Assembly: GCA_000004695.1 (NCBI GenBank)
Contig: CM000153.2
Coordinates: forward strand, 2,784,001 to 2,848,000
Source: Dictyostelium discoideum
Taxonomy: Eukaryota
Direction of reading: 5' to 3'
Length of the DNA stretch: 64,000 nt
Below the pieces are notes generated by a model. That model worked only from the letters and a program-made list of their open reading frames with translations. It was not told the DNA's origin and did no database searches. Of this stretch, positions 4,258 to 61,774 are shown piece by piece (position 1 is the first letter of the stretch; each line of letters opens with the position of its first letter). The position numbers and the translations under genes were made by a program.

Positions 4258-4465
4258 TTATAAACAAACAAATAATAATTGAATTTTTTTAAATTTGAAA
4301 TTAAAATATCTTCTTAAGATTTTTTTTTTTTTTTTTTTTCTTTGATTTTTTTTTGATTTGAAAGTCAATCTGTTTTTTTTTTCATTTTATTTTTTTTATT
4401 TTTTTTATTTTTTTTATTTTTTTTATTTTAAAAATAATAACACCAAACCCAATATATACATAAAA

Positions 4466-4686
4466 ATGGATAATTTAAAGGAAATAAATAATGATAAATT
4501 ATTTTTTAAAGTTTTTAGAAATATTTATTTAAAAATGGTTATATTTTATCATATTAAATTATTAAATTATTATGAAATTAAAGATAATTATACATTTACA
4601 ATAGAACAATTTCAATCATTTAAATTTAAAGATCATTTATTAAAGTTAAGATTAATAGAACCAATACAAAAATTAGCAGCAGCAGC

Positions 4687-4724
<38 letters not shown>

Positions 4725-6220
4725 ATAATTATTATACAAAAGGTGAACTTTCAAAATTAATACCAAATTCAGTTAAAAGTTTATCAATAGATATTAATAA
4801 TCAATTAGTAGTTGGTGATATAAAAGATGGTTTAACAAGTTTAAAATTTGGTAAAAGATTTGATCAAATATTAACACCAGGATTATTAGTAACGGATGGT
4901 TCATCATTGGTTGAGTTTAATTCAGGTAGTGCATTTAGGAATGGTGATTTAGATTTACAAGTTGGGTCAATACCTTCATCTATTAAATCATTAACATTAG
5001 GTCACAGTTTTAATTCAGTTATTAATGAAAATGTTTTACCAGAAGGATTGGTAAAATTAAGATTTAAAGGATTTAATAAAATGATTGTAAGGAATTCTTT
5101 ACCAAATTCATTATTGGAATTGGAATTTGGTAGAAATTTCAATAGAGCTATAAGTGCGCATGGAACATTACCAAAATCATTGACATCGCTAACGTTGGGT
5201 ATCCACTTTACCCATGTTATCCATATTGGTACTTTACCACCAACACTAAAGAAACTAATTATTCAATCGGTTGGATATAATCAAAAATTTGAAAAAAAGG
5301 CATTACCAGATTCATTGGAGCATTTGGAGTTCAATAAAAATGGGTTCTTTAATCAACCAATTGCTGATAAATTTTTACCACCAAATTTGAAGACTTTGAT
5401 TCTTCCAAAACAATGGTCAAATAATTATGAACCAATTCTAGCACTCCAATTACCAATCAATTTAACTGATTTACAATTTTACTCGAATGAATGTTCTTTA
5501 TTTTTACAAAATGATTCAATACCATCAACAGTTTTAAATTTGAGGATTAATGGTATACTTGGTAATCATTATAGTTTTACAAGGGGTGCTAAAAGGTTAC
5601 AAGGAAATATTATACCTCCATCTATTACCTCTATTGAAACTGGTACGGTTATTAATCTTTCACATTGTATAAATTTAAAGAATTTCAAATTTGATGAAAG
5701 TTTTGATCAGAGGTCTCTATCAAAAGGTTATATACCATCAACTATAACAAATTTAAAACTTCCACCATTATGGAATAGAGAATTGGTATGTGCTAATGGT
5801 TTTGATTTATTTCCAAATTGTTTAAAATTTTTAGATTTAGCATCTTATAATTATCCAATTGGTGAAAATGTTTTACCACCAAATTTAGAATCATTAATAA
5901 TTAATAGTTGGAATTTACCAATTGAAAAAAATACATTACCTCAATCTATAACTTATTTATCAATGAAATCATTCAATCAAAGATTAACTCCATCATCTTT
6001 ACCAAAAAATTTAAAAACTTTAATTCTTCATAAATATAATGTATTATTAGTACCAAATTGTTTCCCACAATCAATTAGACTTATAAAACTTGGTTCAATC
6101 TTTGAAAGAAACAATATCCTATATCCATTCAATAATAATGTTACAATTATATTTGGTAAAAATGATATTAATTTTCCAATTTATCCAAAATTTGAAAATA
6201 AATTACGTTGTAGTGCATAA
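4466..6220 (+). CDS. FNIP-repeat protein (Dictyostelium-type FNIP/DUF repeats), single exon
   Basis: Recurrent ~22-aa units (..LP.SL..L.FG..FNQ.I..G.LP..L..L..) throughout. The real start is most likely ATG at 4466 (AAAAATGG context, MDNLKEINNDKLFFKVFRNIYL...); the 4358 start in the ORF track is poly-T read-through. Confidence 0.75.
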
Positions 6221-38155: not shown

Positions 38156-38187
<32 letters not shown>

Positions 38188-39521
38188 TGGAAATGAATAA
38201 AAAAACAGATAATACTTGATTAAAGAATAAATTTATCAACTTTTCATTCAATGAATCGATAAGTGCTTTACATGTTTTCTTAATGAATTGAGCCTGGTTC
38301 TCTCTATTTGTTTCAAATTGAAATAATAATGGAATATCACCAACTTTTGATAACTTTTCAGATTTTTCTAAATCTTCAGAATAATAATATTCTTCTTTTT
38401 TTTTCATTTAAACTATAATTGCAAACATTAAAAAGGATCATTGAAATAGATGAGTTTATTAAATCTTTTACTTTTGATTGATCATTGATTGAACCTTTTC
38501 TAAAAAATGTCACATTGCATGGTTTAATTTTAAATTTTTCAATCATTATGTTTATAATTTTTATTCTTTTTAATTGTGAAACTGCAGTACCATTAAAAAT
38601 TAAATTCCAAAACTCTTTATCTGTAAATGGTTTTTCTTTGTTATTATTAATATTAATATTATTTAAATGACTCATCATATATTTATATGATTGTTTAATA
38701 TCGTTGAATGTTGGATTATATTTACTATCCTCAACTAATGATTTTAATGCACCGACACAATCAGATTTTATTATTGTATCTACTGTATCATCTAAATTGA
38801 ATAATGAAATCTTTGGATAAAATTTAAAAATATTTGAAAAAAATTGTTTATCATCTTTAATTTTTGAATAAAGTTTTGAAAAAGATTGTTTATTGAAATT
38901 TGTTAAATATTGATTTCTATTTACTTTATCTTTAATTAATCCATCCATTGTTCAATTAAATAACTAAAATTGAAAATTTCATCATACTTTAATGTATGTT
39001 CACCTGTAAAATAATTATTAAAAATTTGCCTATTTAAATATTTATTTATAAACTTTCCAAAATATTATTTCATTATTATCCATTGGTTTATTATTTGTTT
39101 GAGCTTGTTTATTTAATGATAATTGTTTATTTGTTGTGTTTTTTATTGATTTTTTTAATTTAATTGATTTTCTAATACTTTCTAATAAAATTAACTTGTT
39201 TTGTTTTTCATTTATACTATATTTCGATTTTGAAATTTTTTTAATATCTTTATATGTTTTATTCTCTAATTGCTCCATTTCTCTATCTATATCTTTCTCA
39301 GTATCAACATCTTTATTACTATTATAATTATAATTTTTATTACTATTATTATTTTTATTATTAACTATACATTCAAGAGTTGAAATTTTTGATTTCAATT
39401 GTAGTATCTCTGTTTTCAATTCATTGATAGTATCTAATAATCCTTGTTTCTCTTTACTCTTAATTTTTTTTTTGAAAAAAAAAAAAAAAAAAAAATTTCT
39501 CACAAGAAATAATGTTAACAT
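38156..39521 (-). pseudogene. Degenerate, truncated paralog of the SAP-motif family genes at 39631..43116 and 43341..45545 (at least 3 frameshifts)
   Basis: Order of homologous segments matches the intact paralogs: coiled-coil + SAP-like motif (LENKTYKDIKKISKSKYSINEKQNKLILLESI), then ..NNEIIFWKVYK, then (shifted frame) INKYLNRQIFNNYFTGEHTLKYDEIFNFSYLIEQ, then (shifted again) MDGLIKDKVNRNQYLTNF..CVGALKSLVEDSKYNPT.., then (another frame, ORF 38156..38407) ..VGDIPLLFQFETNRENQAQFIKKTCKALIDSLNEK.. The sequence stops far short of the paralogs' C-terminal half. Confidence 0.6.
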
Positions 39522-39630
39522 TTAAAAAAATTGTAATTTAAATAGAAAAAAAAAAAAATATTGATCACTTTTTAAATCCTATTAATAGTATTTTATTTAT
39601 TTATTTGTTTATTTATTTATTTTTTAAAAT

Positions 39631-41704
39631 TTAAATTATTTCATTATTTTTAAATAAATCTTTTAAAGCATAAAAAGTTGCAGATCCTTTAGAAACATTT
39701 GAATAAAATTGGGTATTAGTGATTGAAATATTACAATCCTCTAAAAGATAAAGAGATAATTGTAAATGGTTATTATTTAAAGCACGATAGAGTATTTCAC
39801 GTAATTGAATTTGATCGAAAATACTTTTTGAATCATTTGATCTTTTTGAAAATATTGATTTATAACCATTATCAACCAAAGCTTTAAATAATCTAATATG
39901 ACCCTTTGTTGCTTCTTTTTCCAATAAACATCTAAGATAATTTGCAAAACAAATTTTATCGCCATTATTTAAAATTACATCTGGATTGTTACCAGTTATG
40001 GTTGTTGTTGTTTTTTTTGTTGGTGTTGTTGGTGTTGTTGGTGTTGTTGTTGGTGTTGTTGGTGTTGTTGGTGTTGTTGTTTCAGTTGTAGCCGAATGAA
40101 AATTTGGTAAACCTAATTTAATAAAATCATTAATGAAACCTTTACATTCAGTATCTTCAATAGTATTGAAAATTTCTTTTGATTTTTTTGAAGCATGAGA
40201 ATAACCAATACCAAAATAATAATATTTTTCTTCAAAAGAGAATGGACTGAAATGATAACTATTTGGTAAAGCATTTCTGTTGTAGAATAACCATCTTTGA
40301 ACTGCAATTACAAAATAATAATTTGGACAGTCGATGTTTGGTAGATAGGGTTTATTATTGCCAGAATTTCTATCTAGAGCTATAGAGTAAAGATAGGTAA
40401 AATCCAATACTGAATTGACGCCTTTATAGCCAATCATATGAGAATTTGTGAAAACAACACCTTTACTATCACCACAACCTTTTGATAGAGGTGATTGAAG
40501 GAAATCTATAAATGTTTTCAATACTAAACCCATTGAATTGAATTGGCAAGTATTTAATATTGGTGGAAGTGGTACTTTGAAAACTATATCTCTTTTAAGC
40601 AATGGCGATGGTGGTGCTGCTGGTACTGATAATAATAATGATTTATACTTTTCAACTAAATCCAATCTACAATTATAAATAAATGCTGTAATTGGCAATA
40701 CTTTACTATTATTTTTTAAACAATTATTAAAAACAAATTCCAATACTTTTTCTGATCTAATAAAATGAAATTCAGTATGAAAACTTGGATTACCACCAAC
40801 ACTGGTTGAAACTCCGATTCCTATTTCATTTATATGTTCAATTTTTAACATTGGTTTATTTAATTGATCATATGCCAATTCTATCAATTCTAAATCATCA
40901 TATAATAAAACTTGCCCAAAGAAAATGTAAATATGATTATCTCCATATTTCTTTTGGAGTGTTACAATATTAAGATATTTGCAAATGTCTTTAATGAATT
41001 GAATTTGATTTTCTTTTTTATTTTGAAATTGAAAGAGAATTGGTATATTTCCAACAAATGATTTATCTTCAAAAATTACATTTCGAATAGTTGAACAAAT
41101 AGTTGATCTTGAAACTTCTTTAAACAATTCTATATCACCAAATCTAAATGAATGCAATAATAAATCTGAATGTTTTGTTTTACGTGATATATTTACTTTT
41201 TCACCTGCTAACAATGAATAAAATTCATTTCCTTCAAAAAAACTATGGCCATAAAACAATCCTAATAATTTTAAAATTGATTTTAATTTATTTTTATTAT
41301 CACTATTATATTGATAATAAACAAAATCAAATATCTTTTGATTTCTTTCAATTTTAGTTATTGATTCAATTGTTTCTTTAAATTCTTTTAAACTTGGAAA
41401 TATAGGTGTAATCTTTCTTTTAATTTTTTTATTACCACCACCACCATTACTATCTTTTTTTTCTTTTTTTTCTTTTTTTTCTTTTTTTTCTTTTTTTTCT
41501 TTTTTTTCTTTTTTTCTTTCAAATTCACTTTCGCTTTCACTACTATCACTTTCACTATTATCATGATTATCTTTTTTTTCTTCCTTTTCTTCTTTTTCTC
41601 TTTCGCTTTCACTACTATCACTTTCACTACTATCACTTTCACTATTACTACTGCTACTATCATTATCTTTTTTTTCTTTTTTTTCTTTTTTTTCTTTTTC
41701 ATTT

Positions 41705-41765
<61 letters not shown>

Positions 41766-42690
41766 CACTTCCACTTTCACTTTCACTTTCGCTATCACTA
41801 CTACTATCATTTTTACTTTTACTTTTACTATCACCTTTCTTTTTTAATTTTTTAAAAATAATATTTTGATAAAAACCTTTTGGTTTTACTTTTAAATGAA
41901 TCATAGATTCACATATATTTATTAAATCTTTAATAAGTAATGATTCTTGGATTGGACAAAATTTTGAAATTTTTTCAAATCTAAGTGGTGTCACAGCTGC
42001 TGGTTTTATATGGTATCTGTTAATCATAAAGTTAATGAATTTAGCACGTTTTCTAAAACAGTATCCAAATATTGATTTCCAAAATTCATTTTCTGTGAAT
42101 GGTAATTTAAATTTCTCTATACTATTTTTATTGTTATTATTACTATTATTTTTATTATTATTATTATTATTATTTTCATTATTATTTGAATTTTCAAAAA
42201 GATTCATCATATATTTAAATGTTTTATAACTACCATCTTTAATTGATTGAATAATATTATCGGTAGTTGGTTTATAATTATTTTCTTCAACTAATGATTT
42301 TAATGCACCAATACAATCAGATTTTAAAATATTTCCAACAGTATAACCAATATTGAATAATGATATCTTTGGATAAAATTTAAAAAAGCTTGTATAGAAT
42401 TTTTTATCCTCTTTAATTGCTGAAAATAAATCTGATAATGATTTTTCAAAACCTGTTAAATATTGGTTTCTATAAACTTTGTCTTTTAACAATTCAATTT
42501 CATTACATTCAATCATGTGACCAACATTAAAAACTTCATCATATCTTAATGAATGTTTACCTGTACATAATTTATTTATAATTTGTCTATTTAAATATTT
42601 ATTTCTAAAAATTTTCCAAAATAATCTTTCACCATCACTCATTGGTATTAGTTGTTGTTTTTGTTGTTGTTGTTGTTGTTGATTCTTCTC

Positions 42691-42758
<68 letters not shown>

Positions 42759-43116
42759 TCAATTTAATAGATTCTCTAATTCTTTCTAAAATATCTAATT
42801 TTTTACCACCCAATTGTTGAACACCATACTTTGTTTTTGCGATTTTTGCTATTGTTTTATATTTTTTAGTTTCTAATTCTTTCATTATTGTATCTATATC
42901 TTTTTCTTTTTCTAAACCACAATCCATATTTTGACTACCATTTTCGTTTTCATTTTCATTTTCAACCTCTTCTTCTATGATAATCTCTTTATTATTATTG
43001 TTTTTTTTATTATTTAATTTTTCTCTTGTTGAAAGTTTTGATTTTAATTCTTGATTTTCTTTTTTTAATTTTTCTATAACATTTAATAATTCTTTTTCTC
43101 TCTTAGAAATACCCAT
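39631..43116 (-). CDS. Large (1161 aa) protein of a Dictyostelium-specific family: N-terminal coiled-coil + SAP-like motif, poly-T/Q linker, conserved LFWKIFRNKYL-containing domain, acidic SE/KEK repeats, TPTTP repeats, possible ankyrin-like C-terminus
   Basis: SAP-like helix-extended-helix motif TIAKIAKTKYGVQQLGGKKLDILERIRESI. Conserved blocks are shared with the 43341..45545 gene (..LFWK(I/V)F(R/K)NK(Y/F)L.., ..CIGALKSL.EE.N.., ..LLYDDLELIELAY(D/N)QL.KPMLKIE.IN.., ..FI.NC.L.KVLPIT.FIYN.RLDLVEKYKSLL..). Single long ORF. Confidence 0.6.
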
Positions 43117-43340
43117 TTTTAACAGAAATAAAGAAACAAAAAAAAAATATGTAGTTAAAAGAAAATTAAAAAAAAAAAAAAAAAAAAATTAAACACGAAA
43201 AAAAAAAAAAAAAAAAATAAATAAAAAAAAATAAAATGTTTTTATAAGTATTTGAGCTAAAATTAAAATCTAGATTTTTTTTTTTCCTAATTTTTTCTTA
43301 TTTTTTTTTTTATTCTATTTTATTTTATTTATTTTATTTA

Positions 43341-45545
43341 TTAAATTTTATTTTTTTTAATTAATAAATCTAAAATATTAAATCCAAATCTTTCAAAATG
43401 ATTTGGTTTATTATAATAAATCCATCTTGCAATTAAAATTTTAATATAAAATTTTAGTGGTGGGTGACCATAAAAACTAAAATAGAATGGTCCTTTTTGA
43501 TTTGTAAATTTATGATTAATTAAATAAATAAAATCAGAAATTGATTTTAAATTATTTAAACCAAAGAAATGTTCATTTTTAAAAATTACACCATCACCAT
43601 CACTATCACCACAACCATTTGAAAGTGATGGTGAATTTATAAAACCAATCATTGCTTTCATTGCAATAGTAATTGAATAAAGTCTATGAGAATAACAAAT
43701 TGGTGGATCTAATTTAAATGATGGTTCAATATTTGATATTTCTTGTGATGATGATGATGGTGATGATGATGATAATAATGATTTATACTTTTCAACTAAA
43801 TCCAATCTACCATTATAAATGAAATTGGTAATTGGTAATATTTTATTACAATTTTTTAAACAATTTTTAAAAATAAATTCCAACACTCCTTCTGACCTAA
43901 TAAAATAAAATTCAGCTTCACATTCTTTTTTATTACTATTAGTACTTGCTCTATAATTATCTTGATTTATAAATTCAATTTTTAACATTGGCTTATCTAA
44001 TTGGTTATATGCTAATTCTATTAATTCTAAATCATCATACAATAAAACTTGATTAAATATAAAATTTAAATAATTTGAATTATTTTTAACCAATTGGCAA
44101 ACTTGTTTAATAAATTCGATTTTATTTTTTAAATTATTTTCAAATTGAAATAACATTGGTTTAAATCCATCATTTGAAACGGGTTCATAAAAATCAAATA
44201 AACAATTTATTAATTTAAACATTACTTTAAATAATTGAAAATTTCCAAACTTAATTGAATTCTTAAATAATTGATTTCTTCTAGGTTCATTACTTTTATA
44301 TGAATAATGTCTATTATTATTTAATAACATTGAATAGAATTCATCATGATTTGAATTACAATTTTCAAAATACATTTTCAATAATTTTAAAATGAAATTA
44401 AATTTTTCATTATCTTTATTATTATTTGAATATTGATCATAAATAAAATCTAATAATATTTGATTTCTATCTGATTTTAATAAAAATAATGATTTATATA
44501 ATTCATTAATTTCATTTACATTTTTAAATATAATATTATTTGATTCGTTTAAATTTAAATAAATAATTGAAATACATGAATTTTTTAAATCTTTAATTCT
44601 AAGTTTTAATTCATCAATTGGGCATTTTTCAAAAACTCTTTTTAATTCTTTTTTTTCAAATTTACATTTATAAAATAATTTTAAATTATCATTATCATTA
44701 AAATTAATATAATTTATAAATTTAAAAAGAAATGATGATGATGAATTATTTTTACTATTTAATATTAATTTCCAAAATTGTTCATTTGGTAAAATATTTG
44801 TTGTTATTGTTTTATTAATTATTAAATATTTAAATGATTTATAACTACATGATTCAATTGATAATTTAATTAAATCAATTAATTCAATTTTTACAAGTTC
44901 TTTAATAATATTAAATTCTTCAAATAATGATTTTAAAGCACCAATACAATCATTTTGAATTATAATTTTTAATATAAATTCTATATCAATTATAATTGTT
45001 GATATATTTAGATAATTATTAATTAAATTTGTATAAAATTGTTTATCATTTTTAATTGATTGAAAAAATGAGAAATTTCCAAACCTATTGTAACCTGTTA
45101 AATATTGATTTCTATTAACTTTTTCTTTTAATAATTCAATTTCATTACATTCAATCAAATGAATTGCATTATGTACATCATCATACGTTAATCTATGTGG
45201 ACCTGAATTTGTATGATTCATAATTTTTGTAATTAAAAATTTATTTTTAAAAACTTTCCAAAATAATTTTTCATTATTATCCATTGGTTTATTATTTAGT
45301 GTTGTTTTTGTTGTTGTTGTTATTGTTGATGAAATGGTTTTTAATTGATTTGATTTTGAATTAATTGAATTTTTTATTCTTTTTAATATTTCAGATTTTT
45401 TACCACCTGCATTAACACCAAATTTTGATTTTGCAACTTTTTTAATTTCTAAATATGTTTTATTTTCTAACTCTTCAATTATTGTATCTATATCTGTATC
45501 CTCACTATTATTGTTATTATCTTTTTCATTATTTATCTCAACCAT
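43341..45545 (-). CDS. Second intact member (734 aa) of the SAP-motif/LFWKVF family; tandem paralog of 39631..43116
   Basis: MVEINNEKDNNNNSEDTDIDTIIEELENKTYLEIKKVAKSKFGVNAGGKKSEILKRIKNSI (SAP-like), then ..NNEKLFWKVFKNKFLITKIMNH.. and the shared downstream blocks. Confidence 0.6.
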   Translation of the reverse strand: MVEINNEKDNNNNSEDTDIDTIIEELENKTYLEIKKVAKSKFGVNAGGKKSEILKRIKNSINSKSNQLKTISSTITTTTKTTLNNKPMDNNEKLFWKVFKNKFLITKIMNHTNSGPHRLTYDDVHNAIHLIECNEIELLKEKVNRNQYLTGYNRFGNFSFFQSIKNDKQFYTNLINNYLNISTIIIDIEFILKIIIQNDCIGALKSLFEEFNIIKELVKIELIDLIKLSIESCSYKSFKYLIINKTITTNILPNEQFWKLILNSKNNSSSSFLFKFINYINFNDNDNLKLFYKCKFEKKELKRVFEKCPIDELKLRIKDLKNSCISIIYLNLNESNNIIFKNVNEINELYKSLFLLKSDRNQILLDFIYDQYSNNNKDNEKFNFILKLLKMYFENCNSNHDEFYSMLLNNNRHYSYKSNEPRRNQLFKNSIKFGNFQLFKVMFKLINCLFDFYEPVSNDGFKPMLFQFENNLKNKIEFIKQVCQLVKNNSNYLNFIFNQVLLYDDLELIELAYNQLDKPMLKIEFINQDNYRASTNSNKKECEAEFYFIRSEGVLEFIFKNCLKNCNKILPITNFIYNGRLDLVEKYKSLLSSSSPSSSSQEISNIEPSFKLDPPICYSHRLYSITIAMKAMIGFINSPSLSNGCGDSDGDGVIFKNEHFFGLNNLKSISDFIYLINHKFTNQKGPFYFSFYGHPPLKFYIKILIARWIYYNKPNHFERFGFNILDLLIKKNKI

Positions 45546-52986: not shown

Positions 52987-55374
<2,388 letters not shown>

Positions 55375-57023: not shown

Positions 57024-57095
57024 TCCTTGTTGGTCTAGTGGTGAGGATTTTCGCCTGTCACGCGAAAGGCCCGGGTTCAATTCCCGGACAGGGAG
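57024..57095 (+). tRNA. tRNA-Asp (anticodon GUC)
   Basis: TCCTTGTTGGTCTAGTGGTGAGGATTTTCGCCTGTCACGCGAAAGGCCCGGGTTCAATTCCCGGACAGGGAG: cloverleaf with anticodon loop CTGTCAC, T-loop GGTTCAATTCC, 7-bp acceptor stem, discriminator G. Confidence 0.85.
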
Positions 57096-57105
57096 CTTTT
57101 TGAAA

Positions 57106-60100
57106 ACTCACTCGAAATCCGAAGTTCCGGTTTCTAACTTCATTCAAATAAATTTTTAAAAAAATGAATTTTTTCGATAAACTTAAAGGTGAACTCAACT
57201 TAGGCGAAGAAGAGTTAAATAAAAAAACTATTCAAATAAGGTTATTCTACCCACATACCTTGGAATTAAATAGTAATTCAACAAAATTAATAGATAATTT
57301 CATAGTTAATGGTACTCTTAACATTGTCAGAAGACAAAAGGGTATAACAGTATTCGGTAGAATACTAAAAGAAAAATTCACATTATTACACGAGTGTTAC
57401 AGCACTTTCAAGTATGAAGATTTCCCACTGCAAAAATTCATACTTTACACCCCAGGATATCACTATGTCCACTTTTACACATTTATCTGAAAGAAACACC
57501 TTCATAATCAACTCAAAATCTCTGTTTAAAAAATATAATTCAATCAACCATCAAATAATAGCAGGCGACTTCAATAACAACCACGATTGCAACAGCTTCT
57601 TCGGTACTGAATTACGTAAAATAATAGACCAAGACATGCTACTAGATACTGGTATTGAAGAAAACACTCCAACATTTCCAAGATCAATGAAGAGACTAGA
57701 TAGAATCTACTGTCATCCAACACTACTAAACCAAAATTCAAAACTGGTAGTCCACAACACAGTATTTAACAAATCAGATCACTTTCCCATCACAATCACA
57801 ATACAAACCAACAGAGAAACAACAACAACAACAACAACCAAACTAGAAAGACTCCCTTGGACATTATGTAAAGAAATTCTCAACAACAAACATATACATG
57901 ATGGGTTATCAGAATTAATCAGTAAGAACAAAGATAAGATCAAATCAGTGGAGGAATGGACGAAATTTAAAAATAATGTCATCAGAGATTATTTAAAAAA
58001 AGAACAAAACAAAATAAAGAAAGAAAAGAACAAAAGAAAATACGTAATCCACAAATTACTTGGAAATTGTGATATCATTCCAAAGATGAGAAAAGAACTC
58101 AATGAAGAAATAAGTAGAATATTAGAAGAAGAAAGAAAGGTAAAAGCATGGGATATCAAATTAAAACTCCACCTGCATCAAGAAACACCAAGCAAATACC
58201 TCACAAGTATCCTTAAATCCAGAGCCAAAGATAAATCAATATTCCAAATAAAAGATAAAGATAATAAGACCATATCAGATAAAGAGAACATAGCAAAAAG
58301 ATTTGTTGAATTCTATCAAGATCAATATGAAGAGAAAGAAGATAACGAAGAAACCCACAAGAAGTTATTAGAAAAATGGGAAGTAGACGTTGATTTAATC
58401 AAGAAACTCGAGATAGACAGACCGATAAGAATACATGAAGTGACCAAAGCAATCAAAACTTCAAGTATCCACAAATCTCCAGGTTTAGACGGTATCAATG
58501 CACTATTCTACAAGTACCACATCAACTCAATAGCAAGAATATTGACTATAGCTTTCAACGACCTCCTCACAAATAAGAAAGAAATCCCCACAAAATTCAA
58601 AGAAGGAGTAATAACAACAATATTCAAAAAAGGAGATGAACTAAACATTTCAAATAGAAGACCAATCACCCTTCTCAATACAGATTACAAAATTTTAAGC
58701 AAAATTCTCAACAGTAGATTATTAGATATCACCAGTAAAATTATCAACAAATTTCAAAACGGCTTTGTTCCAAACAGGTTCATCCAAGACAATATTCAGA
58801 TCATGAAGGAAGTAATAGAAATAAGTAACAAAAGAAAGAACAATACACTCATTACCTTTTACGATTTTAACAAAGCATTCGATTCAATCAGCCACAAGAG
58901 TATCACAAGAACATTAGAGCATATTGGTATCCCCCCAAAATTCACAGCGATCCTACTAAACCTACTCAAAGATACTAAAAACAAAATAAAGATCAACGAC
59001 TTTTTAGTCAATGGAATAACAATCAGAAGAGGAACAAAACAAGGAGACCCAATATCACCAACAATCTTTGCTCTAGTTTTAGAACCACTTCTAATAGATA
59101 TCATCAATGATAATACAATCAAAGGCTTCACTCTACCAAATTCCAAATCATTAAAACTCACTGCATTTGCTGACGACATAGCAACATTTACAAACTCCAC
59201 TGAAGAACTAATGAAAATTAATACTAAAATCCAAAAGTACTGCTCAGCAACATCATCATCGTTAAACAAAGAGAAAACAGTAATGATAGCAATAGGAGAT
59301 ATACCACACGATCTACCATTCCAAGAGAGTACAGTCCCAGAAAGATATCTTGGCCTCAATTTCACCAAAACAGGTTTAAATTCAAAATACAACACTTTAA
59401 TCCAAGAAATGAAAAACAATCTAATCAAATGGAAATCACAAGCAATAACGATGAAGGCAAAGATGACAATTCTCAAAACATACGTTCTATCCAAATTAAC
59501 ATACCATCAATACATGGATAATCTAAATGAAGAACAAATTGAGGAAATCAATAACATGACCAGATGGTTCTTATTCTCCTCAGTTAAGAATACATATACA
59601 AAAGAGAGAAAATACAAAACTATGATGAAAATAGACAGAGCATATGCAGATTGGAAAGAAGGAGGCATAAAATTATGGGATATAGAACTAAGACATATAG
59701 CATTCAAAATCTGGTACATGAACAGGCTACTCCATAACAACTACAACAACAACAACAATACCTTACAAGAATGGTACATGGAGCAATTAAGTAGAAAAAA
59801 AGCCCACACTTCAACCCTCAACGATATGTGCAGACACTGGGGTGTATTCAGAGTCAAATTTTACCAAAACCATCCAAAGATAAATGAACTTCCAGACTGT
59901 ATAAGAAACGACAATGACGAACCACTAAAACTAAAAGAAATTTACGAACTCATGATCAAAGACAGACACCCAACACCAAGAAGAACAGAATGGCAGAAGT
60001 TATGGGCGGTGAGATACAACACAGCAATACCCAAAGTATTCATAAACATCAACAGCATTTCTCACCAAAAAGGTAGAAACACCCTCTTCAGATTCTTCTC

Positions 60101-60601
60101 AAGATCACTTCCAGGTATCAACCACGAAAGAGACACCAGATGCAAGATCTGTGGCCACCTATTCAGAGACCCTTATTCTCACCTCTTCACTCTATGCCAA
60201 GATATCCTAGATATTGAAAAAACCATCATATCAACAGTTAACAAATTATCATTCATCAAAATCCACAGATGGTCAATGGATACCTTAGACATATCAAAAT
60301 ACAACAGAACTGAGAGAATCTTCCCCAATCTCATAGGAATAATAGCACACCAATTATGGAAGATAATCTGTCACAAATTGTTCAACACTGATGAAAGCAA
60401 ACCAGAGCCAAAATTCGAGCAAAAGGTCATAGAAACAGAATTACTAAATCTCATCGAAACTGAAAAATTCATCACACTAAAGAAAATCAAACACGACGAA
60501 GCAATACTAAAAAACACCAATCAAGATCTTCACAAATACAAATTCAACAAAGCCTGGCAAACCCCAGTAGTTCCGAACCCTCTTCCAATTTAAGTAGTAG
60601 T

Positions 60602-61640: not shown

Positions 61641-61702
61641 TTAAATTTTTTGGATGCATTTAGAAAATCGGAACTTCGGATTTGTAGGGATTTTTCAAAA
61701 AG

Positions 61703-61774
61703 CTCCCTGTCCGGGAATTGAACCCGGGCCTTTCGCGTGACAGGCGAAAATCCTCACCACTAGACCAACAAGGA
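61703..61774 (-). tRNA. tRNA-Asp (GUC), second copy in inverted orientation
   Basis: The reverse complement is identical to the 57024-57095 gene. ~30 bp of 5' flank and ~55 bp of 3' flank are also duplicated, and the 5' flank+stem fragment (attcaaaaatatccaataatccttgttggt) occurs a third time at 61850-61880. Confidence 0.85.

Follow-up and report, generated by a model that had tools for sequence, protein, structure and literature searches.

ANKLE1 and ANKLE2 (LEM4) are metazoan proteins which join a LEM domain, of the helix-extended-helix (HeH) fold, to ankyrin repeats. Another known design is the adaptor in which an F-box is combined with a repeat domain, such as the F-box-LRR (leucine-rich repeat) and F-box-WD40 proteins. 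F-box-FNIP proteins of Megavirus are adaptors of this kind (PMC9525666). Here we describe a tandem array of three minus-strand genes, located at 38156-45545 of a 64,000-nucleotide stretch of Dictyostelium discoideum DNA (contig CM000153.2, positions 2,784,001 to 2,848,000; hereafter the window), which has ~20% G+C in a genome of 78% A+T. The architecture of the genes, their homology relationships and the pseudogenisation of one of them are established in this analysis. We suggest that the array probably represents three paralogues of a Dictyostelium-specific, fast-evolving, uncharacterised family, joining a SAP/HeH-type motif, a short block starting with the residues LFWK (the LFWK block) and a divergent ankyrin-like solenoid.

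As in ANKLE1 and ANKLE2, as they are generally known, an HeH-superfamily motif and ankyrin-type repeats are found in one polypeptide. However, the order of the domains and the number of repeats are different, and ANKLE genes are single-copy, not tandemly expanding. To our knowledge, there is no detectable sequence relationship between the two groups; the family has neither a GIY-YIG nor another catalytic domain, and the ANKLE proteins have no LFWK block. By analogy, the likeness suggests tethering to the chromatin or nuclear envelope together with protein binding. With the F-box adaptors the locus shares a short conserved N-terminal block preceding variable repeat domains, as well as tandem arrays, pseudogenes and relaxed selection, but unlike in these adaptors the block has no sequence similarity to the F-box.

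Organization of the locus

The three neighbours, named B, A and C, are placed head-to-tail. B and A are intact, and C is decayed.

43341..45545, minus strand: gene B (DDB_G0285087), intact, 734 amino acids (aa); open reading frame (ORF), exact match to XP_640003.1 of D. discoideum AX4
39631..43116, minus strand: gene A, intact, 1161 aa; ORF, equal 1161-aa gene call in a second assembly, AlphaFold2 (AF2) model
38209..39464, minus strand: pseudogene C, a C-type remnant; tblastn frames, alignment to the intact copies C3'-C5', same in the second assembly

The preliminary description of the locus, made from the DNA letters, proposed three consecutive homologous minus-strand loci, and tblastn of the A and B proteins against the window bears this out. 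A and B match each other with E-values of 1e-59 and 1e-39, and A matches C with an E-value of 2e-41, the frames of C following in the succession -3/-1/-3/-1 and the matches ending at the equivalent of A residue 737. Given these values, the homology of the three units is real and far above chance. The coordinates of the copies (B 43341-45545, A 39631-43116, C fragments 38156-39521) are correct according to the ORF list.

Gene A has the full architecture: a leucine-zipper-like coil, the HeH/SAP-like motif, a poly-T/poly-Q linker, the LFWK block and an ankyrin-like solenoid with a low-complexity insert. Its parts are the following (pLDDT is the predicted local distance difference test score of AF2).

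42994..43104, minus strand: predicted coiled coil, residues 5-41; one long helix in AF2, pLDDT ~81, homologous segment in C
42757..42900, minus strand: HeH/SAP-like motif, residues 73-120; AF2, family profile searches
42643..42756, minus strand: poly-Thr/poly-Gln linker, residues 121-158; translation, pLDDT <50
42565..42624, minus strand: LFWK block LFWKIFRNKYLNRQIINKLC; DNA pattern, family information content
41848..42564, minus strand: N-terminal part of the ankyrin-like solenoid, residues 185-423
41410..41847, minus strand: acidic/Ser/Lys low-complexity insert, residues 424-569; alignment, disordered in AF2
39634..41409, minus strand: C-terminal part of the helical repeat domain, residues 570-1161, including ankyrin-like repeats GHIRLFKALVDNGY; conserved blocks, helical in AF2 with pLDDT 75-87 at 1056-1150

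The heptad positions of the coil, read by eye, are L10/L17/L24 and I14/N21/L28. The insert of ~145 residues, built of (SE)n and (KEK)n, splits the helical domain into two parts; it is present in A and in its counterpart A' from a related lineage (see below) only, not in B or the C-type copies.

Gene B, the product of which is named ‘SAP domain-containing protein’ in UniRef, consists of the HeH/SAP-like motif, a short T-rich linker, the LFWK block and the ankyrin-like solenoid. It has no N-terminal coiled coil and lacks the C-terminal ~150 aa of A; a search upstream of B for an exon encoding the coil found none.

45363..45494, minus strand: HeH/SAP-like motif of B, residues 18-61 DIDTIIEELENKTYLEIKKVAKSKFGVNAGGKKSEILKRIKNSI; sub-threshold Pfam SAP match, family profile
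45207..45266, minus strand: LFWK block of B LFWKVFKNKFLITKIMNHTN; DNA pattern, family information content

Hence, the common block order proposed for the three loci needs two amendments: the coiled coil is confined to A and C, and the homopolymeric linker to A (T22 plus a Q run), B having only the short T-rich stretch and C none. Outside the window, AX4 gene DDB_G0285075 encodes a protein of 329 aa that shares 91.6% identity with the C-terminal half of B; this gene is a further B-type paralogue elsewhere on the chromosome, probably truncated.

The SAP/HeH-type motif

The wider family was supplied by an exhaustive HMMER search, and about half of its members have the motif, placed ahead of the LFWK block. 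Combined into a profile, 21 of these motifs match the N-terminal domain of Rho (3l0o, E 1.9e-4), the SAP domain of Ku70 (1jjr, 7.9e-4) and that of rice SIZ1 (2rno, 5e-3). Member by member, Pfam assigns Rho_N to 6 of the 21, SAP to four (best 4e-7), SAP_new25 to four, HeH to one and WH2 to one. In the AF2 model of A the motif comprises helices 74-82, 86-95 and 106-127 with a Gly-containing loop at 96-105 between the last two (pLDDT 73-82). The helix-loop-helix of ~35 residues with the hydrophobic spacing of the superfamily is thus seen both in this model and in the register with Ku70 SAP and Rho_N. Together, the family profile, the member-wise Pfam matches and the helices of A support the membership of the motif in the helix-extended-helix SAP/Rho_N/HeH superfamily, at the superfamily level.

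The described motifs of this superfamily (PF02037, PF07498, PF12949) are alike in having ~35-45 residues arranged as helix, Gly loop and helix. The lysine pair that opens helix 2 is also found here, in register with Ku70 YGLKSGLKKQELLE and Rho ELESMNIKQLYEIAKSLGIPRYTSMRKRDLI. In contrast to them, helix 1 of the motif contains one residue more and is preceded by another short helix, and the scores of A and B lie under the Pfam cut-off. The SAP-like motif of the preliminary description therefore stands at the level of the superfamily, by the family profile and the UniRef name of B, whereas A and B singly do not reach the Pfam SAP threshold. Binding of the motif to nucleic acid or chromatin may be proposed from its lysine-rich composition, the only sign of such a function visible in the sequence.

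A different assignment takes the basic helix GGKKLDILERIRESIKLKK for an actin-monomer-binding WH2 motif instead of helix 2 of a SAP/HeH unit, which would make the proteins actin regulators. A narrow profile of seven sequences gives weak matches to the N-WASP WH2 repeats as well as to Ku70; for the former the summed E-value is 6e-4, and weak Pfam WH2 matches appear in three of the seven sequences (E at least 0.049) and in the C fragment (E 0.068). However, the single N-WASP domain matches are insignificant (i-Evalue at least 35), and the broad profile matches Rho_N and SAP, not WH2. The LKK(T/V) signature is absent from B, where INSKSN is found, and the majority of the 21 motifs in the alignment lack it too, LKK being seen in A and the C-type copies only. 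Moreover, the conserved unit holds a first helix and a Gly-containing loop, which are foreign to WH2, and the single WH2 match among the 21 members stands against 15 matches to HeH-clan models. We consider the WH2 assignment extremely unlikely; the likeness does not go beyond the K-rich helix 2 in A and the C-type copies, and B does not show it. We therefore retain the SAP/Rho_N/HeH assignment.

The large ankyrin-like domain

An AF2 sub-model of A residues 155-415 has a pLDDT of 72, with 80-96 over most repeats, and is composed of helix pairs with a ~30-residue period, that is, of the stacked antiparallel pairs that repeat every ~30-33 residues in the ankyrin fold. The full-length model likewise consists of helices throughout, and its confident blocks are 200-320, 340-410 and 1056-1150. 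Besides, the family region aligns to P0049, a relative with the LFWK block at its start, with an hhalign probability of 94.3% (E 1e-7, 111 columns), and the aligned residues 98-153 of P0049 are a Pfam Ank_2 match (E 4.6e-15), which establishes homology to a verified ANK protein over the same region. With a genuine ankyrin protein, the C-terminal family segment starting with GHIRLFKALVDNGY gives nine matches. Foldseek searches with the AF2 models returned nothing significant.

We conclude that the large domain is, as judged from sequence and models, a strongly degenerate ankyrin-like solenoid, ANK-like in its predicted fold and descent, which fails the test by sequence models. Unlike in canonical ankyrin proteins, no TPLH/beta-hairpin signature is seen, and long irregular stretches of low confidence interrupt the domain. 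The conserved ~600-aa domain reported to open with the LFWK motif is thus confirmed as a conserved domain, but it is a divergent ankyrin-like repeat solenoid and not a novel fold. Across the family its size varies from 550 to 900 residues.

The LFWK block and the FNIP gene

The motif LFWK(I/V)F(R/K)NK(Y/F)L begins at 42624 in A and at 45266 in B and is degenerate in C. The block of ~20 residues to which it belongs, (E)xLFWKVFRNKxLxKxI, shows the highest conservation within the family: with 2.72 bits per column it is the top of all 20-column blocks among 37 members. Pfam scans and a PDB profile search of the LFWK region gave no counterpart of the block, and pattern matches in giant-virus and metagenome contigs yielded no confirmed relatives.

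In the SAP-less members the block follows the initiator Met by 3-10 residues, and a Met is kept at this position in A, B and C (PMDNNEKLFWK...). Either an ancestral start gained the coil and SAP extension on its upstream side, or the SAP-less gene models miss an exon. The stretch in question is residues 159-165 of A (PMDNNEK) and 88-94 of B (PMSDGER); the SAP-less P0005, P0006 and P0062 start there.

The same type of block opens another gene of the window.

4463..6220, plus strand: FNIP-repeat gene, the first ~32 residues containing an LFWK-type block LFFKVFRNIYLKMVIFYHI from 4499; Pfam FNIP E 3e-67, hhalign

This gene, the opening motif of which is KLFFKVFRNIYL (from 4499), resembles Dictyostelium FNIP-repeat proteins (PF05725; FGxxFN LRR) and has the LF(F/W)KVFRN block followed by a poly-T linker. 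In contrast, A, B and C have no FNIP repeats by Pfam, the gene at 4463-6220 being the only one in the window with them, and their body is helical, not LRR. An N-terminal module common to the array and the FNIP gene had been proposed, and the comparison of the N-terminus MDNLKEINNDKLFFKVFRNIYLKMVIFYHI with the N-terminal profile of the family agrees with it (hhalign probability 93.4%, E 2.5e-7, 41% identity over 32 columns). Such a likeness might arise by chance or from composition in a genome of this A+T content with a Lys/Phe/Asn-rich proteome, the more so with an alignment of only ~32 residues and no Pfam or PDB family covering the block. Yet the significance of the hhalign match argues against this, and so does the DNA: the degenerate pattern of the motif occurs at four sites in the window against 0.18 expected, a 20-fold excess over shuffled sequence. 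The block is also placed equally in both, a few residues past the initiator Met (MDN..(D/E)KLF(F/W)KVF(R/K)N), and it stands ahead of bona fide ankyrin repeats in P0049. A chance origin is, in our view, very improbable, and we regard the module as common to the family and the FNIP gene. The LFWK block hence precedes three kinds of repeats: ankyrin-like, canonical ANK (P0049) and FNIP/LRR.

An F-box identity of the block (~45 aa, LPxEIL...W) was also considered and is rejected at the level of sequence. None of 33 regions matches F-box, F-box-like or PRANC at E<=10, and hhalign against an F-box alignment gives a probability of 1%; as a control, Pfam confirmed six of six sequences of the reference alignment as F-box.

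Being the most conserved part of the family, having no Pfam or PDB counterpart and standing before three types of repeats, the block follows a pattern typical of adaptor-docking modules. A bold reading, which we hold to be doubtful, is that it is an undescribed docking module, an analogue of the F-box or SOCS box unrelated to them in sequence, placed ahead of interchangeable fast-evolving recognition domains (ankyrin-like here, FNIP/LRR at 4463, ANK in P0049). The arrays, with their variable copy numbers and pseudogenes, would then serve as a repertoire of diversifying recognition proteins, directed for instance at pathogens or used in self/non-self interactions, with the SAP/HeH motif sending one branch to chromatin.

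Copy C is a pseudogene

Alignment of C to the intact C-type copies reveals the following lesions.

39462..39464, minus strand: start codon lost, ATT where the intact copies have ATG
39047..39048, minus strand: 2-bp deletion within the LFWK block, with an immediate in-frame TAA
38947..38948, minus strand: 4-bp deletion, the second frameshift
38390..38399, minus strand: extra A in an A-run, the third frameshift, adjoining a ~300-bp internal deletion (~38391)
38156..38209, minus strand: 3' breakpoint, homology to the intact copies stopping at ~38209, followed by poly-T; ~1.16 kb of coding sequence lost

Two further deletions, of 24 bp and 18 bp, keep the frame, and in total ~1.5 kb of coding sequence has been deleted. 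The three frameshifting indels and the 3' loss corroborate the earlier view of C as a frameshifted copy without its C-terminal half; frameshifts are, however, an incomplete account of the damage, as the start codon and two large segments are lost besides. Across all of C, the window and the chromosome-level assembly GCA_054883475.1 have the same sequence; over 11 kb of the window the two differ by 14 gap positions only. With the lesions the same in both, a sequencing error is very unlikely, on the assumption that this assembly is independent of the reference.

In the annotation of AX4 the copy is split into two ‘hypothetical protein’ genes, DDB_G0285017 (39042-39521, XP_640001.1) and DDB_G0285015 (38376-38948, XP_640000.1). 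One may accordingly ask if C is not a pseudogene at all, the frameshifts being assembly errors or introns, or the two models functional short proteins. Indeed both fragments are annotated as protein-coding, the 159-aa ORF has kept both the coil and the HeH motif, and one of the three frameshifts sits in an A-run. Against this, the 2-bp and 4-bp deletions lie outside homopolymers, and the stretch between them still codes for the homologous protein in another frame, therefore it is not an intron. The native ATG of C is ATT, and the annotated 159-aa model begins at an upstream ATG and runs through promoter-like poly-T/poly-A sequence. Furthermore, the ratio of nonsynonymous to synonymous substitution rates (dN/dS) of the C fragments against the intact copies is 0.80-0.87, near neutral. 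Together with the amount of coding sequence deleted and the identity of the second assembly, this makes a functional C highly unlikely. By its disabling lesions and relaxed constraint, as read from the alignments, C is a real pseudogene, and DDB_G0285015 and DDB_G0285017 are to be corrected to fragments of one pseudogene.

The copy had been called a young pseudogene. Its pseudogene status is upheld by the lesions shared with the second assembly and by intact C-type copies in a related lineage, but ‘young’ is overstated for a sequence with at least eight lesions and near-neutral dN/dS. Probably C is what remains of a sub-array of several copies rather than a fresh duplicate. Its similarity to C3', C4' and C5' is about the same, hence no single orthologue can be named.

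Copy number and selection

The related lineage is represented by the assembly GCA_054859385.1, labelled D. discoideum, the flanks of which are 92-94% identical to the window (~7% diverged). Its syntenic site carries seven family copies, namely B', A' and five C-type copies, against three in the window. Among the C-type copies, three have intact ORFs (882-901 aa), one is partial, and one is split into two ORFs and has no SAP motif. Their array lies between A' and an acetyltransferase-like gene (JBTAPF010000002.1, merged coordinates ~16.4-32.6 kb) and spans ~16 kb not present in AX4.

The dN/dS is 0.62 for A/A', 0.35 for B/B' and 0.53-0.61 for the C-type paralogues among themselves, compared with 0.02-0.20 for well-conserved neighbours. 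On these sequence ratios, the constraint on A and B is relaxed, yet the selection is purifying. The synonymous rate (dS) of the intact C-type copies is 0.11-0.13 against 0.07-0.08 for the A/A' and B/B' orthologues. Since the C-type dS exceeds the orthologous one, these values, which come from small counts, suggest that the C sub-array predates the split of the lineages and that copies were lost in AX4. The picture of a lineage-specific, dynamic family is in line with both the copy numbers and the elevated dN/dS, and the locus records a strong copy-number change (3 vs 7) between close lineages. We suggest that the array changes via tandem duplication, deletion and decay.

Breadth of the family and proposed function

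Word-indexed homologue searches gave at least 5-9 proteins, and the family became visible through the exhaustive HMMER search, with at least 58 cluster representatives at E<=1e-3 and 24 at E<=1e-10 (clusters at 50% identity). Named members come from the group-4 dictyostelids D. discoideum, D. firmibasis, D. citrinum, D. dimigraforme and D. purpureum; a protein of Tieghemostelium lacteum has the N-terminal module only in common with them. The array was thus rightly described as a tandem family in that three homologous copies are found here, but the family is not restricted to the locus. It is composed of known kinds of parts and one undescribed conserved block, and is otherwise an ordinary lineage-specific gene family. 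For a group of Dictyostelium ‘hypothetical proteins’ this provides a domain-level annotation: HeH/SAP-type motif, LFWK block, ankyrin-like solenoid. No account of the family came up in literature searches with gene IDs, motif strings and SAP plus ankyrin in Dictyostelium; DDB_G0285083 is present in PMC4334915 as a gene-list entry only.

We propose the following division of labour within the protein. The HeH/SAP motif would tether it to nucleic acid or chromatin, and in A and the C-type copies the coil could dimerise it. The variable ankyrin-like solenoid may bind protein partners, while the invariant LFWK block would contact something common to the family and at least some FNIP-repeat and ankyrin proteins.

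Several points weigh against the array being three paralogues of this architecture and function. The Pfam SAP match of B (E 0.02-0.03) scores 14.5-14.9 bits, short of the cut-off of 23.9, and the motif of A has no Pfam match. No Pfam family covers the large domain, Ank included, for which A, B and C give no match at E<=1, and hhalign against consensus designed ankyrin is not significant (probability 0.2%). The AF2 models of A are built from a multiple alignment of only 9 sequences; the full-length one has a mean pLDDT of 55, and in the LFWK block the pLDDT is 41-62. The independence of GCA_054883475.1 from the reference is an assumption. The literature yielded no data on localisation, expression or binding, and the function is wholly inferred. 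On balance, we still judge the three-paralogue reading to be the probable one.

Other features of the window

Just upstream of the family array, at ~47.4-51 kb (minus strand), three aldo-keto reductase paralogues stand in tandem; their dN/dS against the other assembly is 0.4-0.5, a value from very few substitutions. A 795-aa ORF at 52987-55374 (minus strand) is without a Pfam match and without similarity to the family, and its gene call is kept in both other assemblies. Two tRNA-Asp(GTC) genes are in opposite orientation, at 57024-57096 (plus strand) and 61702-61774 (minus strand). About 320 bp past the first of them, a 1059-aa ORF at 57414-60593 (plus strand) encodes Exo_endo_phos and reverse-transcriptase domains. 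The region of this ORF has a higher G+C content (0.27-0.33) and a strong AT skew, and looks like a tRNA-gene-targeted non-LTR (long terminal repeat) retrotransposon of the TRE type.

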